A stretch of 64,000 bases of DNA from an uncultured Bacilli bacterium (GCA_947629655.1 CANREL010000004.1:13577-77576); one strand, 5' to 3'. Positions 33,084 through 57,098 are shown, numbered from the stretch's first letter. Made by a program: numbers and translations. The notes: generated by a model not told the origin, from the letters alone.

Positions 33084-34286
33084 ATGATAAAAGTTGGTGT
33101 TATTTTTGGTGGAGAAAGCGTTGAACATGAAGTAAGTATTATTTCAGCTGTTCAAGCTATGAACAAGATGGATACTGAAAAGTATGAAATCGTACCCATC
33201 TATATCACAAAAGATGGTGAGTGGTATACAGGAGATTTCTTAAAGGAAATTGAAACATTCCAGGACATGCATCTTTTAAAAAAATATGCGAAAAATGTAG
33301 TTTTGTACAAGAGACATGGCAGCTATATCTTACAGAGCAAGGGCTTCTTTAGAAGTGTTGTCAAAGAAATAGATATCGCTTTTCCAATCGTTCATGGAAC
33401 GAATGTTGAAGATGGAGCTTTACAAGGATATTTAAAAACTATTGGTATTCCTTTTGTTGGACCAGATGTTTGTCCAGCAGCTATTGGTCAAGATAAAATC
33501 TTCCAAAAACAAATTTGGGGAAGTGAAGATTTACCAATTCCTAGATATACTTGGTTTTTTGATAGTGAGTATGAAGAAAATCCAGAAGAAGTCATTAAAA
33601 AAGTTGAAAAGATTAAATATCCAGTTATTGTTAAACCAGCTACTTTAGGTAGTAGTGTTGGTATCAGTGTTGCTCACAAAAAAGAAGAATTGATTGAAGC
33701 GATTGAGGATGCCATAACTTATGACAATAAGATTTTAGTTGAAGAAGTAATTGAAAACTTAGTTGAAGTTAATGTCAGTGTCGTTGGTAATCATGACAGT
33801 CTAGATACTAGTGTCATTGAACAAGTCTTGACGGGTAATGACTTACTTACATATGAAGATAAATATATTGGGGGAACGAAGAAGTCAAGCGCTAGTAAAG
33901 GAATGCTTTCAGCTACTCGTAAGATTCCTGCTGATATTGGTGATAAATTGACAAATGAAGTTAAAGACGTTGCTATTCGTGCTTTTAAAGCTTTGAATTT
34001 AAGTGGTGATGTCAGAATAGATTTCTTAATTGATTCAAAGAAGAAAAAAGTATATATAAATGAAGTTAATACCATTCCTGGTTCACTTGCTTTCTATTTG
34101 TGGGAACCAGTTGGTAAAGATTATACAGAATTATTAGATGAACTTATAAATGTTGCTGTTAAAGACTACAAAAAGCGCGTTAATAAGACACACTCTTTTG
34201 ATACTAATATACTAAGTGGATTTGCTAATGGATTAAAGGGGTCAAAAGGAATGAAAGGTGCTAAAGAAGTTAAATCTTTGAAGTAG
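33084..34286 (+). CDS. ddl: D-alanine--D-alanine ligase (ATP-grasp)
   Basis: Motifs FGGESVEHEVS, HGTNVEDGALQG, VKPATLGSSVGI, RIDFL and EVNTIPG. Confidence 0.9.
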   Translation: MIKVGVIFGGESVEHEVSIISAVQAMNKMDTEKYEIVPIYITKDGEWYTGDFLKEIETFQDMHLLKKYAKNVVLYKRHGSYILQSKGFFRSVVKEIDIAFPIVHGTNVEDGALQGYLKTIGIPFVGPDVCPAAIGQDKIFQKQIWGSEDLPIPRYTWFFDSEYEENPEEVIKKVEKIKYPVIVKPATLGSSVGISVAHKKEELIEAIEDAITYDNKILVEEVIENLVEVNVSVVGNHDSLDTSVIEQVLTGNDLLTYEDKYIGGTKKSSASKGMLSATRKIPADIGDKLTNEVKDVAIRAFKALNLSGDVRIDFLIDSKKKKVYINEVNTIPGSLAFYLWEPVGKDYTELLDELINVAVKDYKKRVNKTHSFDTNILSGFANGLKGSKGMKGAKEVKSLK

Positions 34287-34316
34287 TGTGACAATATTCT
34301 ACAGGGGGTGTAAGTA

Positions 34317-35450
34317 TTGGATAACTTTTTTGAATCGGGTTTGGACAGTTTGAGTGATGAAGCTCTTAAATATGTCGGAGTTACTAATCTCGATTTTAGA
34401 ACCCATCTCTCTAAAGATGAATTGTTGGAGGTTCAAAATATAATGTTCTCAATAAATACTTTAATACAGATCACTTTTAAAGATGGAACTTTTGTAAGCG
34501 ATATTGAGAATGTAAAACATTTATTAGAAAATTCACCAATGTGTGATGATAGAAAAATAGAGAAGATCATTCTCAGAAGAAATACATCTGATGAAGTTAA
34601 ACAGATATTGATGATGCCTTATGATAATCCTGATACTTGGAATATTGCTTATGATGTTCACGATGATACTTATATGATAACGACGTTACCCAATTATCGT
34701 CTCATGGAGGAATATATAGGTGTTGTTCTATCTTGTATTAAGGATGACATGAGTCCTTTGGAAAAAATAAAAGAAGTATATGATTTTGTCAAGTTATTGG
34801 AACTTGATGAAAAGGCGAGTAATAGATTTCCTGATATCATAAAAAATAGAGTCACTAACAATTTGGGATTTAATGTTTTATTCAGTGAAATTTTGAAGAG
34901 AATAGGAATTAAATCTTATATTGGGAAGATTCAAAGAGAACAGATGGAATATATCACAATTGTTTCTGTTAAAGATGAAAAGTATGAAGCAGATGGTATA
35001 TATGCATTTGATCCAGTTAGTGATTCAATTCCCAAGCATGCTTATAAAAATGATGCCATGCGTAAAATAAATTATAATTTTTTTGCTCTTTCTTTGAAAA
35101 AGATTGTTTCAACTACTTCTTCGGATAAATTATTAGAACCATTATCCCTATTAACTATTGATTCTTTAGATTTTTCAGAACGTCGAGTTAATGTCAATGA
35201 ACGTAGAAAGTTAGAAGAGATTTTTGATTCAAATTATGAAGAAATATTTAAAATAGTAAATAAAACTAAAGATATAAAAGATGAAAATTTATTAAATTTA
35301 TTCATTTCGACAGTTCATCGTGAAGATTTTATCAATTTGAATAGAGATATTGAAGAATTGATAAGAAACAATTATTATTTACGAAAGAAAGATCTTTTTA
35401 TAAATCTTAAGAAAGATGATATTGAAGATATGAATATTCATGATGTTTAA
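34317..35450 (+). CDS. hypothetical cytoplasmic protein (possible degenerate transglutaminase-like fold)
   Basis: TTG start behind AGGGGGTG. The segment NNLGFNVLFSEILKRIGIKSYIG...EYITIVSV...IYAFDP resembles a GxCxxFA...H...D core spacing, but the Cys and His are absent. Confidence 0.45.
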   Translation: MDNFFESGLDSLSDEALKYVGVTNLDFRTHLSKDELLEVQNIMFSINTLIQITFKDGTFVSDIENVKHLLENSPMCDDRKIEKIILRRNTSDEVKQILMMPYDNPDTWNIAYDVHDDTYMITTLPNYRLMEEYIGVVLSCIKDDMSPLEKIKEVYDFVKLLELDEKASNRFPDIIKNRVTNNLGFNVLFSEILKRIGIKSYIGKIQREQMEYITIVSVKDEKYEADGIYAFDPVSDSIPKHAYKNDAMRKINYNFFALSLKKIVSTTSSDKLLEPLSLLTIDSLDFSERRVNVNERRKLEEIFDSNYEEIFKIVNKTKDIKDENLLNLFISTVHREDFINLNRDIEELIRNNYYLRKKDLFINLKKDDIEDMNIHDV

Positions 35451-35479
35451 AGATTAAATAAGTTTATTTAATCTTTTTA
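35451..35479 (+). terminator. rho-independent terminator
   Basis: 10-bp stem agattaaata/tatttaatct with a 4-nt loop and T5. Confidence 0.75.
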
Positions 35480-35484
35480 TATTG

Positions 35485-35513
35485 TTGTTATTTTCAAGAA
35501 GAAATGATATCAT
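35485..35513 (+). promoter_or_regulatory. putative sigma-A promoter of the giant pilin gene
   Basis: TTGTTA, a 17-nt spacer to the TATCAT hexamer (35508-35513), and TG at 35505-35506 giving an extended -10 (TGaTATCAT). It lies ~29 nt upstream of the ATG. Confidence 0.4.
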
Positions 35514-35541
35514 ATAGATAGAATATAATAGGTGGTGCCAT

Positions 35542-38277
35542 ATGAAAAGAACTAATAAAAAGGGATTTACTCTAATGGAAGTAATAGCGGTCATAATAAT
35601 TTTAGGATTATTAATCATGATAGCTGTACCAGCCGTAAATAAACAGTTATCAAATTTTAGAGTAAATTATTATGATAAATTGGAGAGTAGTGCGAAAGCT
35701 GCTGGTGAAGATTATGTCTCAGATAAAAGATATGCGAAACCGACGAAACTTTTGTACTCTAAGGTTATTAAGATTAGTGAATTGGAAGATGAAGGGTATA
35801 TCGATGAAGTAAAAGATTATCTCGGTAATAAATGTGATTCGAAAGATACTTCATACAGTTATGTCGTCGTCGTTAAAACAGGAGAAAAAGAGTATCAATA
35901 TCAAGCATGTTTAAGATGTAGTGAAGATGAATATGCGACAAATACGAATGATAAAAAATATAATTTATGTGATACTGCTTGGTTAAATAATACAGGAATA
36001 GAATATGTTAAACCAGGTATTAGTAGTGATTTGTTATATGTTTATTATGGAACTACAGAACAAGAGATCAAAGAGCAAGTTGGAATAACTTACGATATTG
36101 TAAAAAGAGATCGAAATGGGGAAGTTTTAGCGCAAGTAAAAAACAGTGAAGCTGAAGAAGATGACATTCTATACCCACAAAACATTGGTGAATTAGTAGG
36201 AAAAAATGTCAATAGTATCGTTGAATTGCGTTATGTTTTACCAAATGGTGAGACTTTAACGAGAAGAGCTGTCATTTATAAACACAACGATCCAAAAGTT
36301 ACGATGACATATGGTAATGCCAATACAGTAACTGGTAAAAAAGTTGGCGATAAATATAATAATGGTAGTAATGAATGGGCAAGTAAATTAAATATAAAAA
36401 TTGAATTCTCACCTAGTGATATCAAAGAGATAACTGATAAGATTAACATGAAGACAGCTGAGTATTATGATCCTGCTACTAACAAATGGGTTGATACCAA
36501 TTGTAGTTTGAGTAGTGATAAAAAGAGTTGTACTTGGACGGTTGCTAGTAACTTTAATAAATCAGTCAAGATAAGAGTAGTTAATCAAAATGATCGCCGA
36601 GGTGATGGCATAAAAGAACACTCAATAAAAGTTGATATAACGAAACCGACATGTGCAAGTAACAATGGCAGTACGACGTGGGCAAAATCACGAACTGTCA
36701 CTGAGAGTTGTACAGATAGTGGTGGAAGTGGATGTAATAAAGGAAGTTATGCAATAACTTATCCAACTAGTTCAGTAAAAAATAAGAAAACTGATAACAT
36801 CACGATATATGATAATGCTGGTAATAGTCAAAGTTGTCCTGTCAATATTTATGTTGACTCAACACCACCTTCAAGTTGTGATGTAACATTACATGGTGTA
36901 ACTAATAATGGAACGACTAGTTCAGATATTACAATTGATGTCAAAGGTGTTGATAATGAAACTGATGCTAGTGGAATAAAGAGTGAAACAGTTGATGTCA
37001 AGTTAAATGGAAGTAGCCTTGGTGATATAAGAAATACGAGTGGTAAGAACAATGGTAAATATACAATAGTTGGAACTTGTACTGATAAAGCTGGAAATTC
37101 TAAAACTAGTGCAACGCAAACTTTCACTTTAAGTAAAAAGGTAACGATAAGCTATAGTGCTGGAGTTGGTGGTAGTGGAAGTATGGCTAGTACGACATGT
37201 GGTTATAATGAAAACTGTAACATAAGTGGAAACAGTTTTACTAGAACAGGATATCACTTCACGGGATGGAAAAATGGTAGTGCTAGTTATTTAGCTGGTG
37301 GAACGTATAAATTTACTTCAAATGTTACTTTGACAGCGCAATGGGCACCTAATACTTATACGATCAATTTCAATGGTAATGGTGCTAATGGTGGTGCAAC
37401 GGGAGCTGTTACTTGTACGTATGATCAAAATTGTACTTTGCCAGGAAATGGTTTTTCAAGAACGGGTTATAGATTTATTGGATGGGGTCTATCAACTGGT
37501 GATGGCGTTGTTTATAATAATGGCGCAACTGTTAATAATTTAGTTGCTAGTGGTTCAATTACGTTATATGCAAAATGGTCTGTTTACAAAGTTCACATCC
37601 GTTACAATACGAATGGTGGATCAATTTTGAGCAGTAATGCATCAGGAAGATGGTCAACATCTGGTAACAATGTTTATTTGAATGGTGCTTTATATGAAGA
37701 GACAATTGATTATGGTAGTAGAATGGGAAGTTCTGGTCTATCTAACTGGAATAATAGTGGATACATATACATAACACGCCCAAGTTATACAGCAGTACCT
37801 GGTCAAGAATGGGTATGTAATAGTGGATGTTCTTCCGTTGGTAGAAAGTTTAGTCAAGATGTCGTTTATAGTGCTAGTGACTTCTGTAATGCTGCTAATG
37901 GTGATTGTACAGTAACAGTGGGCGTTAACTGGCAAGTTGCCTGTGGACCAGTTTATTTGAGTGCTGTTTCAACTGGTGGTAACAATGGTGGTTACTGTTG
38001 GAATAACTGCATGGGTAAGAGTTGTCAAGATTATCGCATAACATTCTCAATTTCAGGATGTAATAGTGGCATGTATGGTCATGTCTGCTACTACAATCCA
38101 GCTGGTTACGGAATTAGTTGTAATGTCTTCCAAGCTACTTATCCAACTCATAACAGTGGATATGGTGTCGTTTGCTTCAACTCATCTACTAACTGGACAT
38201 ATGATAGATCAACTGAATGGGGATATGGTTATGTTTGTAATCAAGCTAACCAATGTGCTGAGAAAATAGCTCCATAG
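35542..38277 (+). CDS. giant (911 aa) type IV pilin-like protein with Ig-like modules, Listeria-Bacteroides-type repeats and a Cys-rich C-terminus
   Basis: Prepilin N-terminus MKRTNKKG/FTLMEVIAVIIILGLLIMIAVPAV (Gly-1, Glu+5). Mid-region has DxAGN-type Ig modules. The repeats FTRTGYHFTGWKNG and FSRTGYRFIGWGL are followed by a C-terminal ~130 aa with many Cys. Confidence 0.75.
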   Translation: MKRTNKKGFTLMEVIAVIIILGLLIMIAVPAVNKQLSNFRVNYYDKLESSAKAAGEDYVSDKRYAKPTKLLYSKVIKISELEDEGYIDEVKDYLGNKCDSKDTSYSYVVVVKTGEKEYQYQACLRCSEDEYATNTNDKKYNLCDTAWLNNTGIEYVKPGISSDLLYVYYGTTEQEIKEQVGITYDIVKRDRNGEVLAQVKNSEAEEDDILYPQNIGELVGKNVNSIVELRYVLPNGETLTRRAVIYKHNDPKVTMTYGNANTVTGKKVGDKYNNGSNEWASKLNIKIEFSPSDIKEITDKINMKTAEYYDPATNKWVDTNCSLSSDKKSCTWTVASNFNKSVKIRVVNQNDRRGDGIKEHSIKVDITKPTCASNNGSTTWAKSRTVTESCTDSGGSGCNKGSYAITYPTSSVKNKKTDNITIYDNAGNSQSCPVNIYVDSTPPSSCDVTLHGVTNNGTTSSDITIDVKGVDNETDASGIKSETVDVKLNGSSLGDIRNTSGKNNGKYTIVGTCTDKAGNSKTSATQTFTLSKKVTISYSAGVGGSGSMASTTCGYNENCNISGNSFTRTGYHFTGWKNGSASYLAGGTYKFTSNVTLTAQWAPNTYTINFNGNGANGGATGAVTCTYDQNCTLPGNGFSRTGYRFIGWGLSTGDGVVYNNGATVNNLVASGSITLYAKWSVYKVHIRYNTNGGSILSSNASGRWSTSGNNVYLNGALYEETIDYGSRMGSSGLSNWNNSGYIYITRPSYTAVPGQEWVCNSGCSSVGRKFSQDVVYSASDFCNAANGDCTVTVGVNWQVACGPVYLSAVSTGGNNGGYCWNNCMGKSCQDYRITFSISGCNSGMYGHVCYYNPAGYGISCNVFQATYPTHNSGYGVVCFNSSTNWTYDRSTEWGYGYVCNQANQCAEKIAP

Positions 38278-38294
38278 TTAGAAAGGAAATTATT

Positions 38295-39122
38295 ATGAAA
38301 AAGAAAAACACAAAGAAAATTAAAAAGAATAATTCAAAAAAAGTTTTAATCGCATTTTCAATAATAGTGATGTTATCTATCATAACTTTGGCTCTATTTC
38401 TCATAAATAGCGACAATAAAAAATATAAGAGTAATAGAGAAGTAGTCGAAAATGTCATCAAAGATGTTTTCTTAACAGAAAATACTTCTCAAAAGAAAAT
38501 AGAAAATTATTTTGGTAATCAAACTGTAAAAGTATTTGTAGCAATGGGAGAGGATAGTTACTTGCGATATATCCCTCCAACTTTTACAGAAAAGAATGCT
38601 GACTACATGAAGTATGAAACTACTCAGAAAAAATATGCCGAAAAAGTAGAAGAAAAAATCTTGAACAACACGAGTTATGTCATAAGTGAGTATGAGGAAA
38701 ATGACAATTTGCAATTTAGGATAACCCCATGGTATTTTGCCCAATATTCCAGTGATTTGTCATATTTGAAAAATAAATTGTTAGAATTGAGTAATATTGA
38801 TCCAGAATTGGTTAATACTAATTATGATAAATATAGTTTTTATGAATATAAAGCTCGTGTTAAAGCTATGGAAATAATGGACAGATATTTAGATAATTAT
38901 GATAATAAAGATGAATCATTAGATTTTACTTTCTATTATGAAAATGGTGAACCCGCTGTTAATCAATATTTGAGTTTATATTTCAATTTAATTGGTATTA
39001 CATCAAAATACAATGTCAATAGTGATGAAAAAATAAAAGAACAAGTGACGAGAGTAGATAAATATTTAGATGAGGCAATTGATAAAAAAATAGTTGATAA
39101 AGATAATGCTTTAGCACTTTAG
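38295..39122 (+). CDS. N-terminally anchored hypothetical protein, tandem paralog 1
   Basis: K-rich N-terminus and one TM helix. It shares long blocks with the next gene (for example TPWYFAQYSSDLSYLKNKLLE...YEYKARVKAM). Confidence 0.6.
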   Translation: MKKKNTKKIKKNNSKKVLIAFSIIVMLSIITLALFLINSDNKKYKSNREVVENVIKDVFLTENTSQKKIENYFGNQTVKVFVAMGEDSYLRYIPPTFTEKNADYMKYETTQKKYAEKVEEKILNNTSYVISEYEENDNLQFRITPWYFAQYSSDLSYLKNKLLELSNIDPELVNTNYDKYSFYEYKARVKAMEIMDRYLDNYDNKDESLDFTFYYENGEPAVNQYLSLYFNLIGITSKYNVNSDEKIKEQVTRVDKYLDEAIDKKIVDKDNALAL

Positions 39123-39135
39123 AAAGAAGATAATT

Positions 39136-39975
39136 ATGAATAAAAAGAGAATAATTGGATTAGTAATAATGGTGTTGGGAAGTATTTGTATATTGAGTTC
39201 TGTTTTCATGATGGTGATCAATTTTTCAAAAGATGACAATACTCCAAAAGATAATGATGAAAGTAATGAAGAAACAACAGAATCAAAACATACTAAAGAA
39301 GTGAAAGAAAATATTGAAAACATCTTTTTAAACGATGATACATCTAGTGATAAAATTGAAGAAATAACAGGTAAAGAAGTGCGTTTTGACTATGTCGTTT
39401 TAGGTAGTGATAGCTATCTTCGCAGTAGACCTACGAGTGAAGTCATCGCTAGTGAAAAACTTGATGATTATGTCACTAAACAAGATGAATATGCTAAAAA
39501 AGTGGAAAAAAATTATAGAGATAATACTGAATATGTCATCGTTGAAGGTGATGATAAAAATTTGAATTTTCAAGTTACACCATGGTATTTCGCTCTATAT
39601 TCTAGTGATTTATCCAGTTTAAAAAATAAATTATTAGAGATGGCTAATGTCGATTTGAGTTTAATTGATACTGATTATTCTAAATATTCTATTTATGAAT
39701 ATAAAGCTCGCGTTAAAGCAATGATAATTTTAGATAGTTATTTAAATAATTATAAAAATGATAATGAAAATATTGATTTCGTATTCTATTACGAAAATGA
39801 TAAACCAGCACCTGATCAATATCTCAACTTGTATTATAATTTAATCGGTTCTACTTCTAAGTACATGACTAATAATGAAGAACAATTAAAAGTACAAGTT
39901 ACAAGAGTAAATGATTATCTCAATCAAGCTATTGAAAATGGTTTAATTGATAAAAATGATGTTTTAGGATTGTAG
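39136..39975 (+). CDS. N-terminally anchored hypothetical protein, tandem paralog 2
   Basis: Same architecture as 38295-39122. A 63-aa block is 44/63 identical by my hand alignment. Confidence 0.6.
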   Translation: MNKKRIIGLVIMVLGSICILSSVFMMVINFSKDDNTPKDNDESNEETTESKHTKEVKENIENIFLNDDTSSDKIEEITGKEVRFDYVVLGSDSYLRSRPTSEVIASEKLDDYVTKQDEYAKKVEKNYRDNTEYVIVEGDDKNLNFQVTPWYFALYSSDLSSLKNKLLEMANVDLSLIDTDYSKYSIYEYKARVKAMIILDSYLNNYKNDNENIDFVFYYENDKPAPDQYLNLYYNLIGSTSKYMTNNEEQLKVQVTRVNDYLNQAIENGLIDKNDVLGL

Positions 39976-39982
39976 TTTTTTT

Positions 39983-40006
39983 AAGAGAATTTTTATTCTC
40001 TTTTTC
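39983..40006 (+). terminator. rho-independent terminator
   Basis: Hairpin aagagaat/tttt/attctctt followed by a T-run. Confidence 0.7.
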
Positions 40007-40029
40007 TTATTTTAAAATATCTATTACTA

Positions 40030-40038
40030 TGTTATAAT
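40030..40038 (+). promoter_or_regulatory. putative extended -10 element of the tad operon
   Basis: TGtTATAAT lies 31 nt upstream of the ATG at 40070. The RBS GGAAGG lies between them. Confidence 0.4.
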
Positions 40039-40069
40039 TATATTGATAATAATAGGAAGGGTTGATTTG

Positions 40070-40426
40070 ATGAAAAATAAGCAAAGTGGTCAAGCATTAA
40101 TAGAATTTGTCATTATTTTACCAGTTGTGATCTTGCTTATTTTTTCTTTTGTAGATTTGGGTAGAATTGTTTTAGAAAATAATAGATTAGAGAATTTAAC
40201 TACGAGTGTTATTGAAAAATATAATGAGACTAAAAAATATGATGATGTCATTTCTTATATCGATTCATTAGGATATGAAAAAGTTGATTTATCTATTTCT
40301 GCACATGATGATATGTTGACGATTAAACTCACTGAAAAAATTGACTTAGTTACGCCAGGACTTTCAAAAATCATGGGTGATCCTTATAAAGTTGAAGTAG
40401 AGAGAGTTGTTAAATATGAAAAATGA
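40070..40426 (+). CDS. TadE-like pseudopilin
   Basis: N-terminus MKNKQSGQALIEFVIILPVVILLIF matches the TadE-type hydrophobic segment (G/xxxxE[FY]). I prefer the ATG at 40070 over the track start at 40043. Confidence 0.65.
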   Translation: MKNKQSGQALIEFVIILPVVILLIFSFVDLGRIVLENNRLENLTTSVIEKYNETKKYDDVISYIDSLGYEKVDLSISAHDDMLTIKLTEKIDLVTPGLSKIMGDPYKVEVERVVKYEK

Positions 40427-41192
40427 AAAAGGTCAAGTATTAGTTCTTTTCATAATGATTTTACCACTTCTATTATTAGGAGGAGCGTGTATCGTTGATT
40501 CTTCTTATATGTTATATCAAAAAAATCGTTTAGATAATATAAATCGTGATGTTTTGAATAGTGTCAATAATAGTTCTTCTTTGAGTGAAGAAGTAATTGA
40601 TGAAATAATTAGAGAAAATGATGCGAAAATTGTCAATGATGAGATATCGATTGATGAGAAAATTGTGATTAAAAATCATGTGATGGTCGATAGCCTATTT
40701 GGAAAGATAATAGGTATTGATAAATATAGAGTCAATTCAGAAGTCAGTGTAAAAGCTAAGAGATTGATATTAGATATCGATAGTTTAAAGAATATTGATA
40801 ATACTGGTAATTATTCAGTTATCAATAATAATGTCATTTATGATGGAGGATTAGTTTTTAAAGATTCTGATTTGGTGATTAATAATTTTAATATGAATGG
40901 TGACTTTGAGATAAATATTTCTTTTTCATTTGAAAAAAATGGTAATTTATTAGAATTCAATAATCTTTTGATAAATATTAGTAATGATGAATTATTCATA
41001 AATGGAAAAAGAGTTACTAGTTTAAAAATTGGTGAAAAATATGATTTAGTCATAACTAAAGATCGAGTTGTATTAAATGGTGATAGTTCAGTATCTTCTA
41101 ATGATATTGACAATTATTCTGGTGATTTGATCATTGGTAAGGGATTCAGTGGAAAAATAGAATTCATAAAAATATATAATATTGGAAATTAG
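40416..41192 (+). CDS. TadG/TadF-like pseudopilin with a C-terminal LamG-like (concanavalin-type) domain
   Basis: N-terminus MKNEKGQVLVLFIMILPLLLLGGACIVD. The C-terminus ends LIIGKGFSGKIEFIKIYN, which resembles the F-x-G-x-I-D-E-V-R-I-Y-N signature of LamG-like domains. Confidence 0.5.
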   Translation: MKNEKGQVLVLFIMILPLLLLGGACIVDSSYMLYQKNRLDNINRDVLNSVNNSSSLSEEVIDEIIRENDAKIVNDEISIDEKIVIKNHVMVDSLFGKIIGIDKYRVNSEVSVKAKRLILDIDSLKNIDNTGNYSVINNNVIYDGGLVFKDSDLVINNFNMNGDFEINISFSFEKNGNLLEFNNLLINISNDELFINGKRVTSLKIGEKYDLVITKDRVVLNGDSSVSSNDIDNYSGDLIIGKGFSGKIEFIKIYNIGN

Positions 41193-41200
41193 GTGAAAAT

Positions 41201-41974
41201 ATGGAAAGTAAAAAAGGTAAAATTCTTACGATTACATCAATGAAGGGTGGAGTTGGAAAAACGATGGTGACGATGCTTCTAGCTAATGTTTTTTCGAAAT
41301 GTGGTAAAAAAGTATTAGTTGTCGATTTGGATTTATACAATGGTAATTTAGCTTTTGCTTATAAAACTAGAGTAAAAAGTTCTATCTATAATTTGTGTGA
41401 TGACATAGCTAATAATCGTTTAGTCAATGGAATAACATCTGAATACGTTTCAAAGATAAGTGATAATTTATACTTTATCGCGGCACCTAAGGATCCACGT
41501 CAAGCTAATAAGATTGATAATAAATATCTCGATAGCATTTTGAAATCATTATCTTTTTTATACGATGTCATTTTAATCGATACTAATCATATATTAAGTG
41601 TTTCTAACATGGTCGCTTTTGAAAACAGTTATAAGATTGTTGACCTTGTCACCAATGACAGCTTTGATTTACAGAGTACGAAGAGTTTTGTGGCCATCTG
41701 TAAGAACATGGGTGTTGACAATTTAGTTTTGATGTTAAATAACGCCATTGATTCACGAAGAGGTTACTATACGACTTATGACATGAAAAATATTACGAAG
41801 AAGAATATTGATTATACAATTCCAAGCGCTTTCTATTTAAAGAATTTTGATCAGTTGGTAATGGATGGTAAGATTGGTTTCTTTGATGAATATTTAAAGG
41901 GTGAAGCTAAAAAGAGTTTGGAAGATTTTGCTGGTCACATGTTAAGTCTCATTGATGATGGAGGTAAGGAATAA
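41201..41974 (+). CDS. TadZ/CpaE-like ParA/MinD-family ATPase
   Basis: Deviant Walker A motif SMKGGVGKT and a DTNH Walker B-like motif. It sits immediately upstream of the CpaF ATPase. Confidence 0.7.
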   Translation: MESKKGKILTITSMKGGVGKTMVTMLLANVFSKCGKKVLVVDLDLYNGNLAFAYKTRVKSSIYNLCDDIANNRLVNGITSEYVSKISDNLYFIAAPKDPRQANKIDNKYLDSILKSLSFLYDVILIDTNHILSVSNMVAFENSYKIVDLVTNDSFDLQSTKSFVAICKNMGVDNLVLMLNNAIDSRRGYYTTYDMKNITKKNIDYTIPSAFYLKNFDQLVMDGKIGFFDEYLKGEAKKSLEDFAGHMLSLIDDGGKE

Positions 41975-43359
41975 TGAAGAAATCTAGTTGGTTAGAAGAA
42001 TTTGATGTAGTTGATCTATCTCCTAAAGTTGATACTCATGAATCTGATTATGAAGTGTTTGAAGATAAGAAGTTACTCGACAATTTTAGAAATAGTATCA
42101 TTCAGGAATTGATCGATAGTAATATAAGTGATAATAGTAATTTATCACAATACATAAATGAAGAAATAGACCGCATTACTGATGGATATGATTTGAGTGG
42201 TCAAGAGAGAAATTATCTTTTGAATTTGATTGAAAATGAAGTTAATGGTTATGGACCAATTACGGAGCTTTTGGATGATAAAAACGTTACAGAAATAATG
42301 ATAAATGGTCCAGATGAAATATATATTGAAGTCGATGGTGTTCTATCACGTGATAAAAGTGTTTCTTTTATCAATGCTGATCACATCATTCGAACTGTTC
42401 AAAGAATAATTCAACCCCTTGGTAGAACGATAGATTCCGCAAGTCCGATGGTCGATTCGCGACTTCCTGACGGTTCAAGAATTAATGCGATCATTCCACC
42501 ATTGTCTGTCAAAGGACCAGTGGTGACAATTCGTAAATTTAAAGATGATATCGACAATATCGATTCTCTAATTGGTAATGGAACACTAACACCTTATATG
42601 GCTAGATTTTTAGATGCCTGTGTCGATGCACGATTAAATATTTTGGTCTGTGGTGGTACTGGTAGTGGTAAGACGACACTTCTAAACGTCTTATCAAACT
42701 TTATCGGTAATGAAGAGAGAATAATCACGATTGAGGATGCTGTCGAATTGCGATTAAAACAAGATCATGTCATTTCACTTGAGACTAAAAGTACTAACTA
42801 TGATCAAGAAGGCGAAGTGACAATTCGTGATTTGGTCAGAAACTCATTACGTATGCGACCTGACCGCATAATTGTTGGTGAAGTTCGTGGTAAAGAAGCA
42901 TTTGATATGCTTCAAGCGATGAATACTGGTCATGATGGAAGTTTGACTACGTTGCATGCCAATGGTTGTAGAGACGCTTTAAATAGACTTGAAACGATGA
43001 TTTTAATGGGTGAGTTGGAACTTCCTATCAAAGCTATCCGCGGTTATATAGAAAGCGCAATTGATATCGTCATATCAGTTGAAAGATTGAGTGATGGTAA
43101 GAGAAAAGTTACATCAATATCAGAAATTGTCGGTTTTGATGGGGAAAACATTCAATTAAAAGAAATATTTGGTTTTATTAAACATGGATTGACGGAAAGT
43201 AAAGAGGTAAATGGAGAATTCATCCTATACGATTACGTTCCAGAAGTTTATGAAAAGATTAAGAGTCGTGGTATTAATACCATTGATGACATGTTTGTAA
43301 AAGAGGAAAAAAAGAAAAAAAGTTCAGTTAAAAAAACAACAAAAAAGACTAAAAAGTAG
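41974..43359 (+). CDS. tadA: Tad/Cpa secretion ATPase (TadA/CpaF family)
   Basis: Motifs VTEIMINGPDEIYIE, GGTGSGKTTLLN, RPDRIIVGEVRGKEAFDMLQAMNTGHDGSLTTLHAN. It ends in a K-rich C-terminal tail. Confidence 0.9.
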   Translation: MKKSSWLEEFDVVDLSPKVDTHESDYEVFEDKKLLDNFRNSIIQELIDSNISDNSNLSQYINEEIDRITDGYDLSGQERNYLLNLIENEVNGYGPITELLDDKNVTEIMINGPDEIYIEVDGVLSRDKSVSFINADHIIRTVQRIIQPLGRTIDSASPMVDSRLPDGSRINAIIPPLSVKGPVVTIRKFKDDIDNIDSLIGNGTLTPYMARFLDACVDARLNILVCGGTGSGKTTLLNVLSNFIGNEERIITIEDAVELRLKQDHVISLETKSTNYDQEGEVTIRDLVRNSLRMRPDRIIVGEVRGKEAFDMLQAMNTGHDGSLTTLHANGCRDALNRLETMILMGELELPIKAIRGYIESAIDIVISVERLSDGKRKVTSISEIVGFDGENIQLKEIFGFIKHGLTESKEVNGEFILYDYVPEVYEKIKSRGINTIDDMFVKEEKKKKSSVKKTTKKTKK

Positions 43360-43370
43360 GAAGTGATAAA

Positions 43371-44387
43371 ATGGATACAGCACTTGATATAATCATTTTT
43401 ATAATTCAAGTGATAACAGGATTTGTACTGTTGTACATCGCTTATCGTCTATTCAGATTTTATCGAACAGTAGGGTTTGATAAGCGCTTTGGACCTTATT
43501 CTGTCGAATTGTTAGAAGATGATAGTGAATCGTTTTTTGACATGGTCAGTTATTATTATGACAAAGTACAAAATTATCTTTCAAAGTCTTTGATAAAAAT
43601 AAAAATATTTGATAGTTATAGTAAAAAATATGAAAAGTATAGTTATGGAAAAAGAGTTAATGCGATAGATGATATGAATTATATATCGAAAAAGATATTC
43701 ATTGGTTTACTATGTGTATTTCTACTATTATTCTCTTGTATTTTTAGATATGTACACGTAAGTTTACTATCGATTTTATTAGCTTTCTTAGTAGGTTTTT
43801 TTGCTCTTGATGTCTATTTGATAATTTATGATAGAATGCGAAAAAACAGTATTGAAAAAGATATTAATAAAGCGGTCATCATCATGAATAATGCCTTTAA
43901 ATCAGGTTATAGTATCATGCAGGCAATATACCTTGTCCATACACAAATGGATGGGGCGATAAGTGAAGAATTTAGAAAGATGTACATCGATATTACTTTT
44001 GGGTTGAACATGGAAGTAGTCTTTAATCGTTTCGCTGATCGCGTTGATTGTGTTGAAGCTCGCTACATGGCTACATCTTTAGGTGTTGTCAATAGGACTG
44101 GTGGAAATATCATTCAAGTTTTTGATGCCGTTGAAAGAAATGCTACGACGAGGCAACGATTGAAAGAAGAACTTAGCAGTGTTTCAGCATCGGCTCGTGC
44201 TATGTTTAAGATTTTGGTATGCATTCCAATATTCATAATTGGTATTCTATTGATTTTAAATCCTACTTATTTTGCACCACTATTCAAAACACCAATAGGT
44301 ATTTTGTGTTTGTTATTGAGTGTGATCATATATGTTTTATACATCATCATCATTAGAAAAATTATATATGTGGAGGTTGATTTATGA
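43371..44387 (+). CDS. tadB: TadB-like platform protein (T2SS-F domain)
   Basis: Polytopic protein with a GspF-like cytoplasmic domain (MNNAFKSGYSIMQAIYLV...EEFRKMYIDITFGLNMEVVFNRFADRV). Confidence 0.75.
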   Translation: MDTALDIIIFIIQVITGFVLLYIAYRLFRFYRTVGFDKRFGPYSVELLEDDSESFFDMVSYYYDKVQNYLSKSLIKIKIFDSYSKKYEKYSYGKRVNAIDDMNYISKKIFIGLLCVFLLLFSCIFRYVHVSLLSILLAFLVGFFALDVYLIIYDRMRKNSIEKDINKAVIIMNNAFKSGYSIMQAIYLVHTQMDGAISEEFRKMYIDITFGLNMEVVFNRFADRVDCVEARYMATSLGVVNRTGGNIIQVFDAVERNATTRQRLKEELSSVSASARAMFKILVCIPIFIIGILLILNPTYFAPLFKTPIGILCLLLSVIIYVLYIIIIRKIIYVEVDL

Positions 44388-45097
44388 AAAAGGTAAAGAA
44401 TAAGAAAAGAACTCTTTCACGTAGTATTTTTTCTAAGAGACAAATCGATAGAATTCAAAGAAAAATCGATTTATTAGGTGAAAATAGTAAATTTGATGCG
44501 ATTTTCTTCTTAAATTTGCGCTTTATTTCTTCCATAGTTCTATTTTTAGTGGTATTATATGTATTTGAGTTGGGGTACTTCTTAGCACCACTAATCACGT
44601 TTATTTACTATTATTTAATTTACTATCTTTTAATTGAATACAATATAAATAAGAGATGTGATAAATTAGATGTTGAAGCGATGTATTTTTTTGAAGTTAT
44701 GACTTTGGCATTAGAATCTGGTAATAATTTAAAAAATGCTTTAGATATGACTTGTAGTAATGTGGACAATGAATTGTCTAGAGAATTTCGTAAAGCTCTT
44801 GATGAAGTTGATTACGGAAAGAGTTTGAATGAAGCTTTAGAGAGTTTGAAGCTTAGAATACCTTCGGATACAATTAACAATATTATTTTGAATATCATGC
44901 AATCTAATATTTTTGGTAATAATATAACTAATGATATGTACAATCAATTGGATTACATTAGAGATAGAGAAATTCAAAAAGCTAAGAGTAGAATTAGTAA
45001 AATACCTCTATACGTATCAGTCATTTCAGTCGTATTTTATGTACCTTTGATAATGTTGTTGATTTTATCACCAGTTATAATAGAATTTTTAAGTTAG
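44384..45097 (+). CDS. tadC: TadC-like platform protein (T2SS-F domain)
   Basis: Overlaps tadB by 4 nt. It has a GspF-like domain (LALESGNNLKNALDMT...REFRKALDEVDYGKSLNEALESL). Confidence 0.7.
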   Translation: MKKVKNKKRTLSRSIFSKRQIDRIQRKIDLLGENSKFDAIFFLNLRFISSIVLFLVVLYVFELGYFLAPLITFIYYYLIYYLLIEYNINKRCDKLDVEAMYFFEVMTLALESGNNLKNALDMTCSNVDNELSREFRKALDEVDYGKSLNEALESLKLRIPSDTINNIILNIMQSNIFGNNITNDMYNQLDYIRDREIQKAKSRISKIPLYVSVISVVFYVPLIMLLILSPVIIEFLS

Positions 45098-45108
45098 GAG
45101 ATGTTAAA

Positions 45109-45828
45109 ATGAGTGGACATTCAAAGTGGGCAACTATCCATAGAAAAAAAGGATTATTGGATGCTGAAAGAGGAAAGATTTTCCAAAAGATTGCTAAAGA
45201 ATTATACGTAGCTGCGAAAGGGACAAATGGTAATCCAGATGATAACCCCGGTTTGCGCTTAGTAGTTGAAAAGGCAAAGAGTAATAACATGCCTAAAGAC
45301 AACATTCAAAAAGCGATTGATAAAGCTGTTAAATCAGCTGGTGGTGAAGACTATGAATCAGTTAGATACGAGGGATATGGTCCAAATGGTGTCGCATTCA
45401 TGGTTGATTGCTTAACTGATAATCGCAATAGAACAGCGATGCTTGTCAGATCAACTTTTACTAAACGTGGTGGAAATCTTGGAACTGACGGATCTGTTTC
45501 ATACATGTTTGAAAGACGTGGGGTTATCGTCATCGATAAAACTCTTGAAGAAGATGAAGCAATGATGGTATGCCTAGATAATGGTGCAGATGATTTCATC
45601 GTCAATGATGACAGTTATGAAATATATACGACACCTGATGATTTCATCAAAGTAAAGACAGCTTTAGAAGAAAGTGGTGTCAAAGAGTTTTTAACTAGTG
45701 AGATTACATATGTAGCTAATAATTTAGTTGAACTTGATGAAGAAGCAACAGAAAGAGTCATGGCCTTAGCTGATGCTCTAGATGAAATTGATGACGTTCA
45801 AAACGTATATCATAATTTGAGTATTTAA
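45109..45828 (+). CDS. yebC: YebC/PmpR-family transcriptional regulator
   Basis: Canonical N-terminus MSGHSKWATIHRKK, with family-wide collinearity. Confidence 0.92.
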   Translation: MSGHSKWATIHRKKGLLDAERGKIFQKIAKELYVAAKGTNGNPDDNPGLRLVVEKAKSNNMPKDNIQKAIDKAVKSAGGEDYESVRYEGYGPNGVAFMVDCLTDNRNRTAMLVRSTFTKRGGNLGTDGSVSYMFERRGVIVIDKTLEEDEAMMVCLDNGADDFIVNDDSYEIYTTPDDFIKVKTALEESGVKEFLTSEITYVANNLVELDEEATERVMALADALDEIDDVQNVYHNLSI

Positions 45829-45851
45829 GTAGATTTATATCTACTTTTTTT
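45829..45851 (+). terminator. rho-independent terminator
   Basis: Hairpin gtagat/ttat/atctac followed by T7. Confidence 0.75.
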
Positions 45852-45877
45852 GTATACTATAAAGGGTGGTGATCTAA

Positions 45878-48800
45878 ATGAGCTATATAAAATCTTTTGA
45901 TGAAGAAGAATTTGAATCTTTAAAAGAGTATTGTCAAAAATATAGTTCTCAATATGGACTCAGTGCTCATGTCATGGAGTTATTAGATGAGAATGGACTT
46001 TATTATTTGAATAAATTTGTCAATGATGATGAAGATTTTGATGAACGTGATTTTGATACTTTAATAAGAGCTTTCTTTGATGGTTTTGATTTTTATTATG
46101 ATCGTTTAGATGATAATTATTTATTAGCGGCTAAAGAAAAATTAGAAGAGACTTTTTCATTCTTTGAAGATAGTCATTTAGATGATGAACACAAAAGTGA
46201 AATTGTCGATAATTTTTTTGAAATACTATCGAGTTATACGCGTGAAGAGTTGAGTGATAGTAAAGCTTTATACTATTTATTGACTTCTGATGTTTTTAGA
46301 AGGAGCAACATGGTTAAAGAATATTTGTACAATTCTTATAATTCGGTTGCTACTAGTAAAGAAAAGTTGGTCTTTTTTGTCAAAAATCTATATGATTTAT
46401 TGAACAAATTACCATATGAAGATGCTCACAAAGTCGATTATATATTTTTGAGTAGTTCTGATGCCTTCACTTATTTTTTAGATGTACCTGAAGAGATGAA
46501 TATCTTTTTTAATGAGAGAATTTTATCAAAATTTGGAAAAGAGACCTTGAGCTTTCTATTCAGAATGTCAGATTATTCTGTCTTCAGCAGTTTTTGTAGA
46601 TCTGATGATAAGTTTTTGTCTGTCGTAGCAGCTATGAATGAATACGTATTAAAAAAATATAATAAAAATTCTTATTTCTTTGATGGAGTTTTTAAATTTT
46701 TTAACAGATTTGAGAAAAAAGATATTAGAGCTAGAAAAATAATCATTGATCTATTCTCTGAATATTATGACAAATATTTTGAAGAAAGTAAAAAGAATGG
46801 TTTTGAAAACGATGAGATTTTTAATAATTTATTGGGATTAATTCTGCAACATCGTGATGTAATATATTTTTTGAATGAAAAAAATATTGAAAATTTAGAT
46901 GATTTCTTTAAAGCGACGAGAGAGAAAATAGATGAATTACACACGACTATATTTGGTAAGGAAGGTTTGGTCAAGTTTAAATATGGTGTCTTTGATCCAA
47001 AAAAAGATTTTCCACCTTTTGAGATGCGAGTACAGGGACTACACGATTTGAAAAATGCTTTCTTGCAAAGAGTTTATGGAATAACTTATGAAGATGCCTT
47101 TTATATCGCGTCAAAATATGGAACTTTTATCGAGCTATGTCAAGATGAAATAGCGGATGAAGATCGTGATGTTTATGAGATAGTTAAGACGATAACCGAT
47201 GTCGCTAATATGATTGATTACAATGGTAATAAAATAAATAATATTAGATTAGCTGCCCATGAATTTATTAAGAATAAGGGACTTTATAATTATAATAATG
47301 GGTCTTGTTATCCGATTCTATTATCATTGATTAATCGCATGTACATGCATGCATATAATGATTGTGTCTTTAAAGTTGATGAAAATTCTAAAGTTTTATA
47401 TCGTCAAAGAAAAGTTCCTGTAATTGATGCAGGAGTTAATTTCAACATGATTGTAAGTTCTATCAATGCTGTTGATGAGTTTTATACCAGTCGTGATAAC
47501 ATGATGGAGAAGTACAACATATCGAGTCGTTCCAATAATCAAGGAATTTGTGCAAGTTTTATCAATAATGAAAGTTTAGGAGTCATATCTTTACGCCAAC
47601 CATTAATTGGGTATGCCAATTTAGCTGATGACAGTTTGGATGCGATGGGAGTTGGTGATATATATTCCAAAACGATTGATTTAGATTTGTTGAGAGCTAA
47701 TTCTACAACTGGTGAGGGAAATTATTTCTTCACTCCTAAAAAATATATCGATTATACAAGATTTGGATATAACGAAATGGTCGTTGATCGCTTTTTGGTC
47801 AAAGATGATGACGATGCGATAAAAGTTCAACCGAGTTACATAGTTGTCTATAAAATAGATGACAATTATAAAAAGACTAGAATGTATAAAAAAGGAATAA
47901 GAATGGCTAGAGATTTTGGTGTTCCACTAGTCTTAGTTGACGTTCCAAAAGTTAAAGAAAATGAACGTGATATCATTCTTCAAAAAGAAAAAGAATTATT
48001 CAAAAGTAGTAAAGTCGATAAGGAATTATTAAATGAAATAGTAACGCGTTATATGAATAATTACAGTGGATCTTTAACGATTATGCGAAGTCGAAATCGC
48101 CGTGGAAATGAATGGCACTATCCAAAGGATTTCTCTGTGCGTGGTTTGACGAGATTTTTAGATAAAGTGGCTCGAAAGTTTGAAGATTTTGATGAAGCAC
48201 AAATAGAAGAGTGGAGTCAAGCTTTGAACGAAGTTTATAATTTAGAAAAAGAAAAGAACAAAATGGCTTTACAAATAAATGATTATGAGGATTCATTGAG
48301 TGGTGGAGAATTTTTACTCGATGATAAGATCATGTTTTCAGAATTTGTTCAAAATATCAAAGATCGCAATATCAATCGTCTTCTTCTCAGAAAGGGCATG
48401 TTTGATCAAGATAAATATTTACACATACCAGATGTCAAAGTACCAAGTGATGTCCAATTGATTGTCGATTTAGCAAACTTATTGTGTAAGAGTAAAGTTT
48501 ATGCCAATGTCAGTGGTCACAATGGGGAAAATATTTATCAGACGAAGAAGACTTATGATTATAGTGAAGAAGAAAAAAATGCTTATGGTCTCGTAATTTC
48601 TTATTTACTTGGGGACTATAGTACTAATTATTTTGCTAATCTCGATACTTGTGATATTACAAATATCAAAATTGATGAAAATATCCAACGCGTTGAGAGG
48701 TGCCTAGATGGCAATGATGCTTTTTCTAATCAGAATATCGATACAGAATTGTTATTAAAAGTTGCTACAGATATTGAAGATCTACCAACGGCAATCTTTT

Positions 48801-48958
48801 CTAAAGTGTTTAGACCATTCATTCAAGATTACAGTGCAAAGATGGGCGTTGCTCCAGATAAAGTACGCGATAATTTTCTTCGTAAGAAAGAACACATTTT
48901 TAGTGAGATGTCTAAATTTGCCCGTTCTGATAGAATTAATAAAGCAATTAGTAAATAA
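45878..48958 (+). CDS. large uncharacterised cytoplasmic protein, paralog A1 (1026 aa)
   Basis: RBS GGGTGGTGA. No signal peptide or TM helix. It has a helical N-terminal module, a conserved core (nt ~47410-48080) and a divergent C-terminal module, and is collinear with 53730-57098 and 57111-60092. Confidence 0.8.
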   Translation: MSYIKSFDEEEFESLKEYCQKYSSQYGLSAHVMELLDENGLYYLNKFVNDDEDFDERDFDTLIRAFFDGFDFYYDRLDDNYLLAAKEKLEETFSFFEDSHLDDEHKSEIVDNFFEILSSYTREELSDSKALYYLLTSDVFRRSNMVKEYLYNSYNSVATSKEKLVFFVKNLYDLLNKLPYEDAHKVDYIFLSSSDAFTYFLDVPEEMNIFFNERILSKFGKETLSFLFRMSDYSVFSSFCRSDDKFLSVVAAMNEYVLKKYNKNSYFFDGVFKFFNRFEKKDIRARKIIIDLFSEYYDKYFEESKKNGFENDEIFNNLLGLILQHRDVIYFLNEKNIENLDDFFKATREKIDELHTTIFGKEGLVKFKYGVFDPKKDFPPFEMRVQGLHDLKNAFLQRVYGITYEDAFYIASKYGTFIELCQDEIADEDRDVYEIVKTITDVANMIDYNGNKINNIRLAAHEFIKNKGLYNYNNGSCYPILLSLINRMYMHAYNDCVFKVDENSKVLYRQRKVPVIDAGVNFNMIVSSINAVDEFYTSRDNMMEKYNISSRSNNQGICASFINNESLGVISLRQPLIGYANLADDSLDAMGVGDIYSKTIDLDLLRANSTTGEGNYFFTPKKYIDYTRFGYNEMVVDRFLVKDDDDAIKVQPSYIVVYKIDDNYKKTRMYKKGIRMARDFGVPLVLVDVPKVKENERDIILQKEKELFKSSKVDKELLNEIVTRYMNNYSGSLTIMRSRNRRGNEWHYPKDFSVRGLTRFLDKVARKFEDFDEAQIEEWSQALNEVYNLEKEKNKMALQINDYEDSLSGGEFLLDDKIMFSEFVQNIKDRNINRLLLRKGMFDQDKYLHIPDVKVPSDVQLIVDLANLLCKSKVYANVSGHNGENIYQTKKTYDYSEEEKNAYGLVISYLLGDYSTNYFANLDTCDITNIKIDENIQRVERCLDGNDAFSNQNIDTELLLKVATDIEDLPTAIFSKVFRPFIQDYSAKMGVAPDKVRDNFLRKKEHIFSEMSKFARSDRINKAISK

Positions 48959-56700: not shown

Positions 56701-57098
56701 TTATTGAAGATGTAGGTTTTGATCTCGGTAAGAAAGTGGCTGATGAATATGAATTGAATTTGGAACCAAACTATGACGTCACCTACAAATTTGATAACTC
56801 ATTATATAGTTCGGTATTCAATAAGAATTCGGAGAATCATCTCGATTTCAACCACGATATAATGGATAAGTACATCACTAAGATAGAGACGATGGACGAT
56901 AAAGATTTCTTAAAGATATTTACGCCAGTAATAGATAAAAAAGCAAGTGCTCTACAAAAGAGTCAAGAAGAGATAGGTGCCATTCTATTGGATCGCAAAG
57001 CCAATATTCGTTCACAATTCAACAACTTAGAACAGCACATCGCTATTGTTAATGGTGAAGCAGTAGACGTTATCAGTGATCATTTATCAACAAAGTAA
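53730..57098 (+). CDS. large uncharacterised cytoplasmic protein, paralog A2 (1122 aa) with an acidic N-terminal tail
   Basis: The first ~80 aa are D/E-rich. The rest is collinear with A1 and A3. The conserved core lies at nt ~55410-56085. Confidence 0.8.
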   Translation: MDDQSIDNDSFLEEDDLYSAVVNSDEEFDDEDLEDTLDLGLFSKNDMDESPSFDDEEDLPELDSDTLNDPFQDPFDSSLSKSFFPQMQAVLKKSEAIAVKPSILDKKIVELESIPIQELSEKLLEEIRSLESETPEFRNAQLQSIFSRILEFQPVNKAGSTNDSHFEKYEQRLFTDLVSAIGLSDIDFVKDFLKSSFKYGGNSSKVQQRKLLLQVFDYYDTHSEDAIEKFNYIFRSSEAIGIMLLDEPELLKTQYFSNRVMELFSKESLSQLYRFKFVMGYQELENLVKEENAKALFVVSQMCNYSTNVIGHDFEFMSAVFKQISTNPKFFQLLSDSYDSLVHGDEKAHMAKKELEPEFRKLMNYILNQSYDKRALGRSDHSNISTLADFMKYVSKQSEEFHDYVVRPGTLSKIEDETFDPENDFLKITDKQDLQNFKRGILMGIYGISFEEAKHYVSQYGQYMEALEKGIVDEDKEILQVLKSICSIVKLDETDQNFESKISQLQTAYAYQIKKNGPYFQDKYVSTMILQGLFNRMIMNTYNKRNLLASSCEELGRDDDVVLLDAGYDFDMVVTSFSGVESFYQSGVNMASKWNTAALSEGQGLCVSHISSQNLGVISLQSPIIGFSKIPQYALDSMGPNDIFTNISSYNLRMLNENRGRVQNRFFIPANVMSDEQRYGYNEILLERFLSQDEKGDIKIQPSYVVCYKMNENYKQSLNYKQSLKVAKDFGIPMVVVDVMKIKEKEQSIIEEQQQQLLSSEKVDLAMMHDIVTRYMNNYTGSLTMCWENQSDWRYREDFSVPGMRNFFDEVFRKISSIDDENLQKEWLDALEFAYRDEKRKNDSAHKVSSYKGSVRGFIFDRDMESGGFDLLTRITDARNGKFTYASEVYVEDEPTADLGIVTQVKVTKVMLSDGVTEGIFVTPQELKEEDIAIISLTNAMEMGSTFDLEDYSLNGVDGFAIKYNEVEDQDVVAAENLVVSYLFANFESAFIEDVGFDLGKKVADEYELNLEPNYDVTYKFDNSLYSSVFNKNSENHLDFNHDIMDKYITKIETMDDKDFLKIFTPVIDKKASALQKSQEEIGAILLDRKANIRSQFNNLEQHIAIVNGEAVDVISDHLSTK

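Follow-up and report, generated by a model that had tools for sequence, protein, structure and literature searches.

A minimal Tad pilus operon without a linked Flp pilin gene, adjacent to a giant modular pilin unit, in an uncultured Bacilli bacterium

The tad operon and its conservation

The window analyzed here, a 64,000-nucleotide (nt) stretch of DNA from an uncultured Bacilli bacterium (GCA_947629655.1 CANREL010000004.1:13577-77576), contains ~30% G+C and carries nearly all of its genes on the plus strand. Six genes at positions 40070-45097 encode a Tad-type pilus machinery, and the unit directly upstream (35542-39975) encodes a 911-amino-acid (aa) protein with the N terminus of a type IV pilin, followed by two membrane-anchored proteins. 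A preliminary description of this DNA had proposed either that the major pilin and the prepilin peptidase are encoded elsewhere or that the Tad machine assembles a hybrid fiber from the TadE/TadG-like proteins and possibly the giant pilin. Its gene list for the operon agrees with the Pfam and NCBIfam matches obtained here, save for the TadG label, and the following features were assigned:

40011..40038 (+), promoter-like site ahead of the tad genes, TTTAAA-16-TATAAT with TG (matched by consensus only)
40070..40426 (+), TadE-like pseudopilin, 118 aa, signal MKNKQSG/QALIEF, PF07811 match (E 8e-10)
40416..41192 (+), second pseudopilin (start at 40407 or 40416), TadF/TadG-like N terminus, signal KG/QVLVLF, no Glu at +5
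41201..41974 (+), short TadZ/CpaE-like ATPase of the ParA/MinD type, AAA_31/ParA matches, motif KGGVGKT
41974..43359 (+), TadA/CpaF-family ATPase, with Walker A (GGTGSGKTT), Walker B and His box intact
43371..44387 (+), TadB-like platform protein, one T2SSF domain (PF00482)
44384..45097 (+), TadC-like platform protein, one T2SSF domain (PF00482)

The hallmarks of a Tad system found in the window are thus a TadA/CpaF ATPase, a pair of single-T2SSF platform proteins, a TadZ ATPase and pseudopilins of the TadE and TadF types, the second of them below threshold. The ATPase matches T2SSE (E 1e-63); its best NCBIfam model is TIGR03819 (313 bits, below the equivalog cutoff of 373), and its best relatives by sequence in the PDB are CpaF structures (E 1e-100). 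The TadZ-like protein has no N-terminal receiver-like domain and measures 257 aa, compared to 383-417 aa for most TadZ proteins of loci from other phyla. The N terminus of the second pseudopilin scored 20.4 bits against the Pfam family Tad (cutoff, 22.3), and the protein is better described as occupying the TadF position than as TadG-like. At 261 aa (258 aa from the ATG at 40416), it exceeds its counterparts in nearly all relatives (~106-136 aa) by a C-terminal extension of ~130 aa that is predicted to be beta-rich and that they do not share. A Pfam search at E values up to 1 returned nothing credible for this extension, and a single-sequence AlphaFold2 (AF2) model of the protein reached a predicted local-distance difference test (pLDDT) score of 39. 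The extension ends in a motif (GFSGKIEFIKIYN) that recalls LamG/lectin domains, by resemblance only. In about half of the lineage, TadB bears an N-terminal extension of ~160 aa (total length, 488-527 aa; L007, L010, L014, L015, L019 and ~25 more loci) that the 338-aa TadB of the window does not carry.

Relatives of the operon were gathered by scanning with TadA and keeping one genome per species, which gave 62 loci (L002-L063) with TadA identities of 60-76%. All of them come from uncultured gut metagenome-assembled genomes labelled Bacilli, Tenericutes, Mollicutes or Erysipelotrichaceae, among them Clostridium sp. CAG:710, Firmicutes bacterium CAG:822 and Ca. Coprosoma, names that presumably fall under the GTDB order RF39. 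Every complete locus retains the gene order tadE, second pseudopilin gene, tadZ, tadA, tadB, tadC, and the TadE-like pseudopilin is kept in nearly all 62. A second metagenome assembly (L001) also contains the junction of the window, from the second anchored protein through TadB, with 100% identity from TadE to TadB and 99% identity in the fragment of the anchored protein. These data bear on the idea that the operon is a decaying relic that no longer makes a filament. Although 64 kb lacking a Flp pilin and a peptidase would fit such decay, the six open reading frames (ORFs) and the ATPase motifs are intact, identical copies occur in an independent assembly, and the gene order has been kept across the 62 species (complete loci) of a genome-reduced lineage, a conservation that argues against a relic. 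We consider this explanation highly improbable.

The minimal Tad set of monoderm bacteria has been defined as a pilin, two minor pilins, TadZ, TadA, TadB, TadC and an unlinked peptidase (PMC6916266). A close published parallel in gene content is the Tad (Tfpc, or type IVc) locus of Bifidobacterium breve UCC2003, which likewise encodes two minor pilins, TadZ, TadA and single-domain TadB/TadC paralogues, includes neither secretin nor Rcp proteins, and relies on a prepilin peptidase encoded at another locus (PMC6916266), just as no peptidase is linked to the operon in the window. The B. breve locus differs in that it includes flp, which the 64 kb of the window do not; in addition, the TadZ of the window is short and consists of the ATPase domain only, and its second pseudopilin carries the 130-aa extension. 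With the diderm type IVc systems of Caulobacter crescentus (Cpa) and Aggregatibacter actinomycetemcomitans (tad), the window shares the CpaF/TadA ATPase (E 1e-100; structures 8rkd and 9e24), the split TadB/TadC platform and a TadE-type pseudopilin. Unlike these systems, it has no secretin, RcpB/C, TadD or CpaB at the locus, and no linked flp/pilA or TadV/CpaA. The proposed hybrid had been called atypical for a Gram-positive organism. This label is wrong: such a gene set, with the peptidase encoded apart from it, is what has been published as minimal for monoderms (PMC6916266).

Flp pilin and prepilin peptidase in the window and in the lineage

Two components expected of a Tad system were not found within the 64 kb, namely, a Flp major pilin and a TadV/CpaA-type (A24) peptidase. 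From the 35542 unit through just past tadC, successive genes are separated by 17, 13 and 94 nt, an overlap, 8 nt, an overlap, 11 nt, an overlap and 11 nt. The largest gap is the 94-nt spacer 5' of tadE, the others being 8-17 nt or overlaps, so that a flp gene cannot fit between the genes, in agreement with what had been noted from the spacing. A regular-expression scan of all ORFs of at least 25 aa across the 64 kb retrieved no flp-like ORF and no pilin-like one beyond those described here, and a hidden Markov model (HMM) built from 24 Flp sequences of the lineage and run against the six-frame translation of the window recovered no Flp, its best match being TadE itself (E 2e-3). Extending the contig by means of RlmN, 1.9 kb to the left of the window toward a gmk/rpoZ region, revealed no flp either. 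The earlier statement that the locus has no Flp pilin consequently extends to the whole window. Its remark that the window has no TadV/PilD/ComC-type peptidase is likewise confirmed: Pfam scans of nearly all window ORFs of at least 100 aa, a catalytic-motif scan of the 64 kb and a phmmer search of the 64 kb with three TadV-like proteins from other loci all failed to detect an A24 peptidase.

We then placed these absences against the lineage. The ~6-10 kb around each of the 62 tad loci and of the 80 flp loci described below, as well as further Pfam-annotated neighborhoods, yielded no A24 peptidase, even where flp is inside the operon. Since operons with flp need a peptidase yet have none nearby, an unlinked peptidase is the norm in this lineage, and its absence from the window is uninformative about the genome.

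The situation of flp is more varied. In 26 of the 62 related loci, the gene immediately 5' of tadE encodes a canonical Flp. This pilin has an ORF of 63-89 aa, a KG/QALVEY signal, a mature form of ~55 residues with two conserved cysteines, and a match to Flp_Fap; members of the family are labelled "Flp family type IVb pilin" by NCBI. In another 28 loci, flp was not in the fetched locus despite sufficient upstream DNA, and 8 were left unscored, so that 28 of the 54 genomes that could be assessed have no flp linked to the tad operon. Scanning metagenomes with a Flp alignment yielded 80 loci, which form 42 clusters at 90% identity. A tadE-like gene lies downstream of flp in 16 clusters, flp is an orphan in 17, and 9 were too short to judge. 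The neighbors of orphan flp genes are housekeeping genes: they are found beside gmk, after rpoZ, after ruvAB, after hpt or 2.7 kb upstream of priA. One orphan (L160) is located 78 nt past a 1.45-kb block that matches, at 98.5% identity, the flank of L051, a flp-less tad locus in which the matching block lies ~6 kb from tadC. In a closed genome (OW818670.1; L172), a DUF192-flp pair and tadE are three housekeeping genes apart. Roughly half of the species thus have no flp at the tad locus, and a similar share of the flp genes are orphans; the most economical reading is that the window's own flp lies elsewhere. The comparative data (28 of 54 loci without flp, 17 orphan against 16 linked clusters, and a peptidase that is never nearby) hence support the first of the two options raised in the preliminary description.

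The DUF192 gene is a side observation of its own. It is divergent, encodes ~100-120 aa with the motif CNSIHTFFM, and stands just upstream of flp in 21 of the 26 flp-bearing tad loci, never without flp. The pair persists where flp is orphaned from tad (loci L006-L061, e.g., L017:7245-7580, minus strand; L120, L136 and L172-L174), and DUF192 is also found in Tad loci of another phylum (Dehalococcoidia L064 and L071). Judging from this gene context, the DUF192 protein may be an undescribed accessory factor of Flp pili.

A sub-lineage could instead have lost flp altogether, leaving the TadE-like protein and the second pseudopilin to form the fiber or a short pseudopilus, which might act as a piston in secretion or in the uptake of DNA. 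Flp is missing at the locus from the window and from the four genomes closest to it, the operon is intact and conserved without it, and the TadE-like proteins of the lineage retain the G/QALxEF processing site with Glu at +5. However, orphan flp genes are common in the lineage, the 98.5%-identical flank ties one of them to a species whose tad locus has no flp, and neither the length nor the sequence of TadE sets loci with flp apart from those lacking it. We regard such a loss as improbable.

A giant modular pilin encoded in a variable slot

The DNA between the tad operon and the preceding gene holds the second unit:

35451..35478 (+), hairpin with U-run after the upstream gene (34317-35450), likely terminator isolating the pilin unit
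35485..35513 (+), promoter-like site ahead of the pilin gene, TTGTTA-17-TATCAT with TG (matched by consensus only)
35542..38277 (+), modular type IV pilin, 911 aa, class III signal MKRTNKKG/FTLMEV
38295..39122 (+), partner protein 1 with an N-terminal membrane anchor, 275 aa, paralogous to partner 2
39136..39975 (+), partner protein 2 with an N-terminal membrane anchor, 279 aa, without relatives in Pfam or the PDB
39983..40006 (+), hairpin with U-rich tail, likely a weak, AU-rich terminator separating the two units

The 911-aa protein scored above the cutoffs of both N_methyl (24.6 bits; cutoff, 21.2) and TIGR02532 (25.4 bits; cutoff, 16.3), and its N terminus matches those of solved pilins (PilE1, MshA and geopilin chains), which bears out the type IVa-style KKG/FTLMEV signal reported previously. 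Two Flg_new repeats and weak Big domains follow downstream. An AF2 model computed from 16 homologues had a mean pLDDT of 69.6 and predicted an alpha-1 helix of ~50 residues (11-60) and then strands at 73-123 (pLDDT, 64-85), a putative small alpha-beta head, as well as a rod of Ig-like beta domains spanning residues 240-680 (block means, ~80-95). The Foldseek matches of this model came mostly from the rod, which resembles the BIg domains of the giant adhesin SiiE and also GhpA; the head got no separate match. The C-terminal 230 aa were not modelled. They look rich in Cys, Gly, Asn and Tyr, and a Pfam search at E values up to 1 returned nothing credible for them. According to its domain architecture and model, the protein is a modular pilin in the sense of PMC8179133, a class that includes PilB and PilC of Streptococcus sanguinis and more than 1,200 modular pilins in InterPro. 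With PilB and PilC it shares a class III signal and a predicted pilin module onto which large non-pilin modules are grafted C-terminally, as well as a predicted adhesin role at the filament tip (PMC8179133). It differs from them in having several Ig-like domains, Flg_new repeats and a Cys-rich end without known relatives, and in belonging to a family that is encoded with one or two anchored partners and not in a type IVa pil locus. The two partners in the window are indeed paralogous, as had been suggested (phmmer E 1e-71). No Pfam match was found for partner 1, and searches of Pfam (E values up to 1) and the PDB gave nothing credible for partner 2.

The family of the 911-aa pilin comprises 34 proteins of 515-1542 aa; almost every member matches N_methyl, and roughly half match Flg_new. 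For three homologues encoded on long contigs (36-51% identity), the surrounding 10 kb contain neither tad genes nor those of any other pilus. Genes for N-terminally anchored proteins of 140-285 aa, one or two per homologue, come next in these loci. One of these proteins is clearly homologous to those of the window (E 1e-18 to 1e-20); partner 1 is homologous to the product of the gene after giant pilin P0011 in L165 (E 1e-18). The giant pilin and its partner or partners therefore constitute an autonomous cassette, and adjacency to the tad operon is not conserved in the family. On one metagenome contig (L167:631-15057), 15 kb hold as many as three giant pilin modules of the N_methyl/Flg_new kind (1219, 1272 and >1197 aa); small anchored proteins follow the first two, the third runs off the contig end, and a gene of the sigma-70 family directly precedes the first.

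The cassette occupies a position that varies between relatives. The closest relatives, L002 and L003, whose TadC and TadZ are 59-62% and 53-54% identical to those of the window, share the mur genes, ddl and the gene for a 377-aa protein with it, and the gene content that comes next differs. The 911-aa unit is not present at their loci; its slot instead holds three or four tandem paralogues of ~180 aa that are predicted to be secreted. Another locus, L017, has the same context as the window (ddl upstream, yebC downstream) and carries DUF192 and flp, which indicates that the two loci are orthologous and that the slot upstream of tadE is variable. The ~180-aa paralogues (L002:6578-8390 and L003:5906-8407) combine an N-terminal signal (..AVAYAAF(S/A)TTLxINGTASI..) with a beta-type body rich in Thr and Ser, and are without credible relatives in Pfam or the PDB; their signal presumably recalls fiber proteins of the SipW/TasA type. 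The conserved 377-382-aa protein between ddl and the variable cassette (window, 34317-35450; L002:5354-6499; L003:4755-5903) is found in the window's sub-lineage only, and the 377-aa member gave nothing credible in a Pfam search at E values up to 1.

With a hairpin and U-run on each side and a promoter-like site of its own, the pilin unit looks separately transcribed. The upstream hairpin has a 10-bp stem (AGAUUAAAUA/UAUUUAAUCU) followed by UUUUUAU. The downstream one, at 39983-40006, had been described as a terminator; the hairpin and its U-rich 3' tail are there, but the 8-bp stem is AU-rich, the folding energy of the spacer is no better than that of shuffled sequence, and a consensus terminator scan, for which the stem is too GC-poor, did not call it. 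Similar hairpins lie 3' of the giant pilins in L061 and L054. From these features, a weak terminator is plausible. Both promoter-like sites are of the extended -10 type, and a permissive Rfam search of 34000-46500 detected no riboswitch and no other RNA family.

Elsewhere in the window, further predicted surface proteins are encoded at 20565-22130, 26048-27454, 27466-29100 and 61700-62731. One is transglutaminase-like and has an Ig-like domain, one is a polysaccharide deacetylase that also bears Ig-like domains, and two contain cohesin and cadherin-like domains, which suggests that cell-surface interactions are heavily invested in. Three long ORFs (45878-48958, 1026 aa; 53730-57098, 1122 aa; 57111-60092, 993 aa) have no credible Pfam family.

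N-methyl pilins near tad operons and the machine that may serve them

We counted 19 genes for N_methyl-type pilins across 63 tad loci, each in the same orientation as the operon. In ~8 relatives, a pilin with a GFTLxE signal is inside the operon or contiguous with it, and some of these proteins carry DUF285/LRR, Flg_new or Ig-like modules:

L013:8089-8544, between flp and tadE, overlapping the flp stop
L061:4856-8080, 1074 aa, DUF285/LRR modules, between flp and tadE
L054:6676-8451, 591 aa, 93 nt upstream of tadE
L040:2840-3865 and L023:11315-11833, directly after tadA
L015:13534-14892, L025:9360-10549 and L047:9781-10347, directly after tadC

These genes speak for the second option raised at the outset in a broader form, namely, that the Tad machine also assembles GFTLxE pilins, the 911-aa protein being a tip or minor subunit that displays its adhesin rod and shares the peptidase. 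The search for other machinery bears on the same point. Pfam scans of the window revealed no PilB/ComGA ATPase, no two-domain PilC/ComGB platform and no PilD/ComC, and no second T2SSF platform of the PilC/ComGB type was found in ~2 Mb of lineage DNA. Part of the lineage does encode a PilB/GspE-type ATPase (L043:1195-2784, L045:483-1826, L063:1973-3511, L137:8436-9740 and L168-L171). It is highly conserved, the best 120 database matches being 80-100% identical, and it stands alone in that neither a platform nor a peptidase was detected within 10 kb. In the sub-lineage of L043, L045 and L063, this ATPase gene is ~8 kb from the tad operon, with mutS between them; in L045 it adjoins two pilin-like genes (424 and 148 aa), and in L137 an orphan flp lies 2.2 kb away. 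Taken together, the findings of this section are compatible either with a Tad platform that handles N-methyl pilins or with a Com/type IVa-type platform encoded elsewhere.

A further parallel, likewise in favor of use of such pilins by the Tad machine, is the Tad-like cluster reported for TANB77, also an uncultured, genome-reduced gut Firmicute, which encodes a Tad-type ATPase, TadZ-like proteins, TadB/C and several pilin-like proteins, one of 621 aa with a TadE/PilV-like N terminus, and for which no canonical Flp was reported (PMC11680825). Unlike the source of the window, TANB77 belongs to the Clostridia; CpaB is present, TadC and TadB are fused, and the pilin-like genes lie downstream inside the cluster (PMC11680825).

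Against assembly of the giant pilin by the Tad machine, its family is found mostly far from tad genes and is missing from the loci of the closest relatives, and in the window the terminator-like hairpin and promoter-like site split its unit from the operon. Moreover, a PilB/GspE-type ATPase in part of the lineage implies a second filament system able to serve these pilins, and the enrichment of N_methyl genes near tad is modest, in a sample whose members are not independent. We therefore hold a mixed machine of this kind to be unlikely. In its strongest version, TadB/TadC would be the sole type IV filament platform of the lineage, assembling both Flp and GFTLxE pilins including the giant adhesin-pilins, a proposal that we rate as doubtful; the conserved PilB-type ATPase might take part in such a cross-family machine. 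As for the hybrid fiber of TadE/TadG and the giant pilin put forward in the preliminary description, it is not needed, and the pilin family itself speaks against it: the 911-aa unit is missing in L002 and L003, and its homologues occur in loci without tad genes.

The explanation that we favor, and consider probable, is a standard minimal monoderm Tad operon whose flp and peptidase genes lie elsewhere in the genome, with the giant pilin unit as a separate cassette. The genes at 40070-45097 would then be the minimal type IVc machine of an uncultured, small-genome, low-GC lineage of gut Bacilli. In this machine, a TadA/CpaF hexamer would power the TadB/TadC platform and the short TadZ would position it, while the TadE-like protein and the second pseudopilin would prime or cap a fiber whose body consists of a ~55-residue Flp pilin made from an unlinked site in the same genome. 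An equally unlinked prepilin peptidase would process all three. The cassette at 35542-39975, comprising the pilin-adhesin and its two anchored partners, would be autonomous and separately transcribed. It would have landed in the variable slot upstream of tadE, where relatives have flp and the DUF192 gene, and would depend in trans on any type IV filament machine present in the cell.

Several points weigh against this explanation. The flp and peptidase of the source organism, and hence pilus production, are inferred from relatives, the evidence from the organism itself being confined to the window. The window and L002-L005, i.e., the five closest genomes, all have no flp at the locus, so that a real loss in this sub-lineage is possible. 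The tad-adjacent N_methyl pilins of ~8 relatives indicate that the adjacency seen in the window may not be pure chance. Finally, no PilC/ComGB-type platform emerged from ~2 Mb of lineage DNA, which leaves a second machine for the 911-aa pilin hypothetical.

Overall, what had been noticed in the window is real, yet for the most part ordinary. A minimal, well-conserved Tad operon is now described for an uncultured group of gut bacteria with reduced genomes, in which the pilin gene is often unlinked from the machinery, and this frequent unlinking is a practical warning for automated Tad detection that expects flp at the locus. At the level of the lineage, the N_methyl pilin genes found within tad operons and the DUF192-flp pair are the observations worth following up. 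If Tad machines do present N-methyl modular adhesin-pilins, the boundary between type IVa/Com and type IVc systems would be blurred, and this would suggest that gut bacteria with tiny genomes vary their adhesins by swapping cassettes beside one machine.

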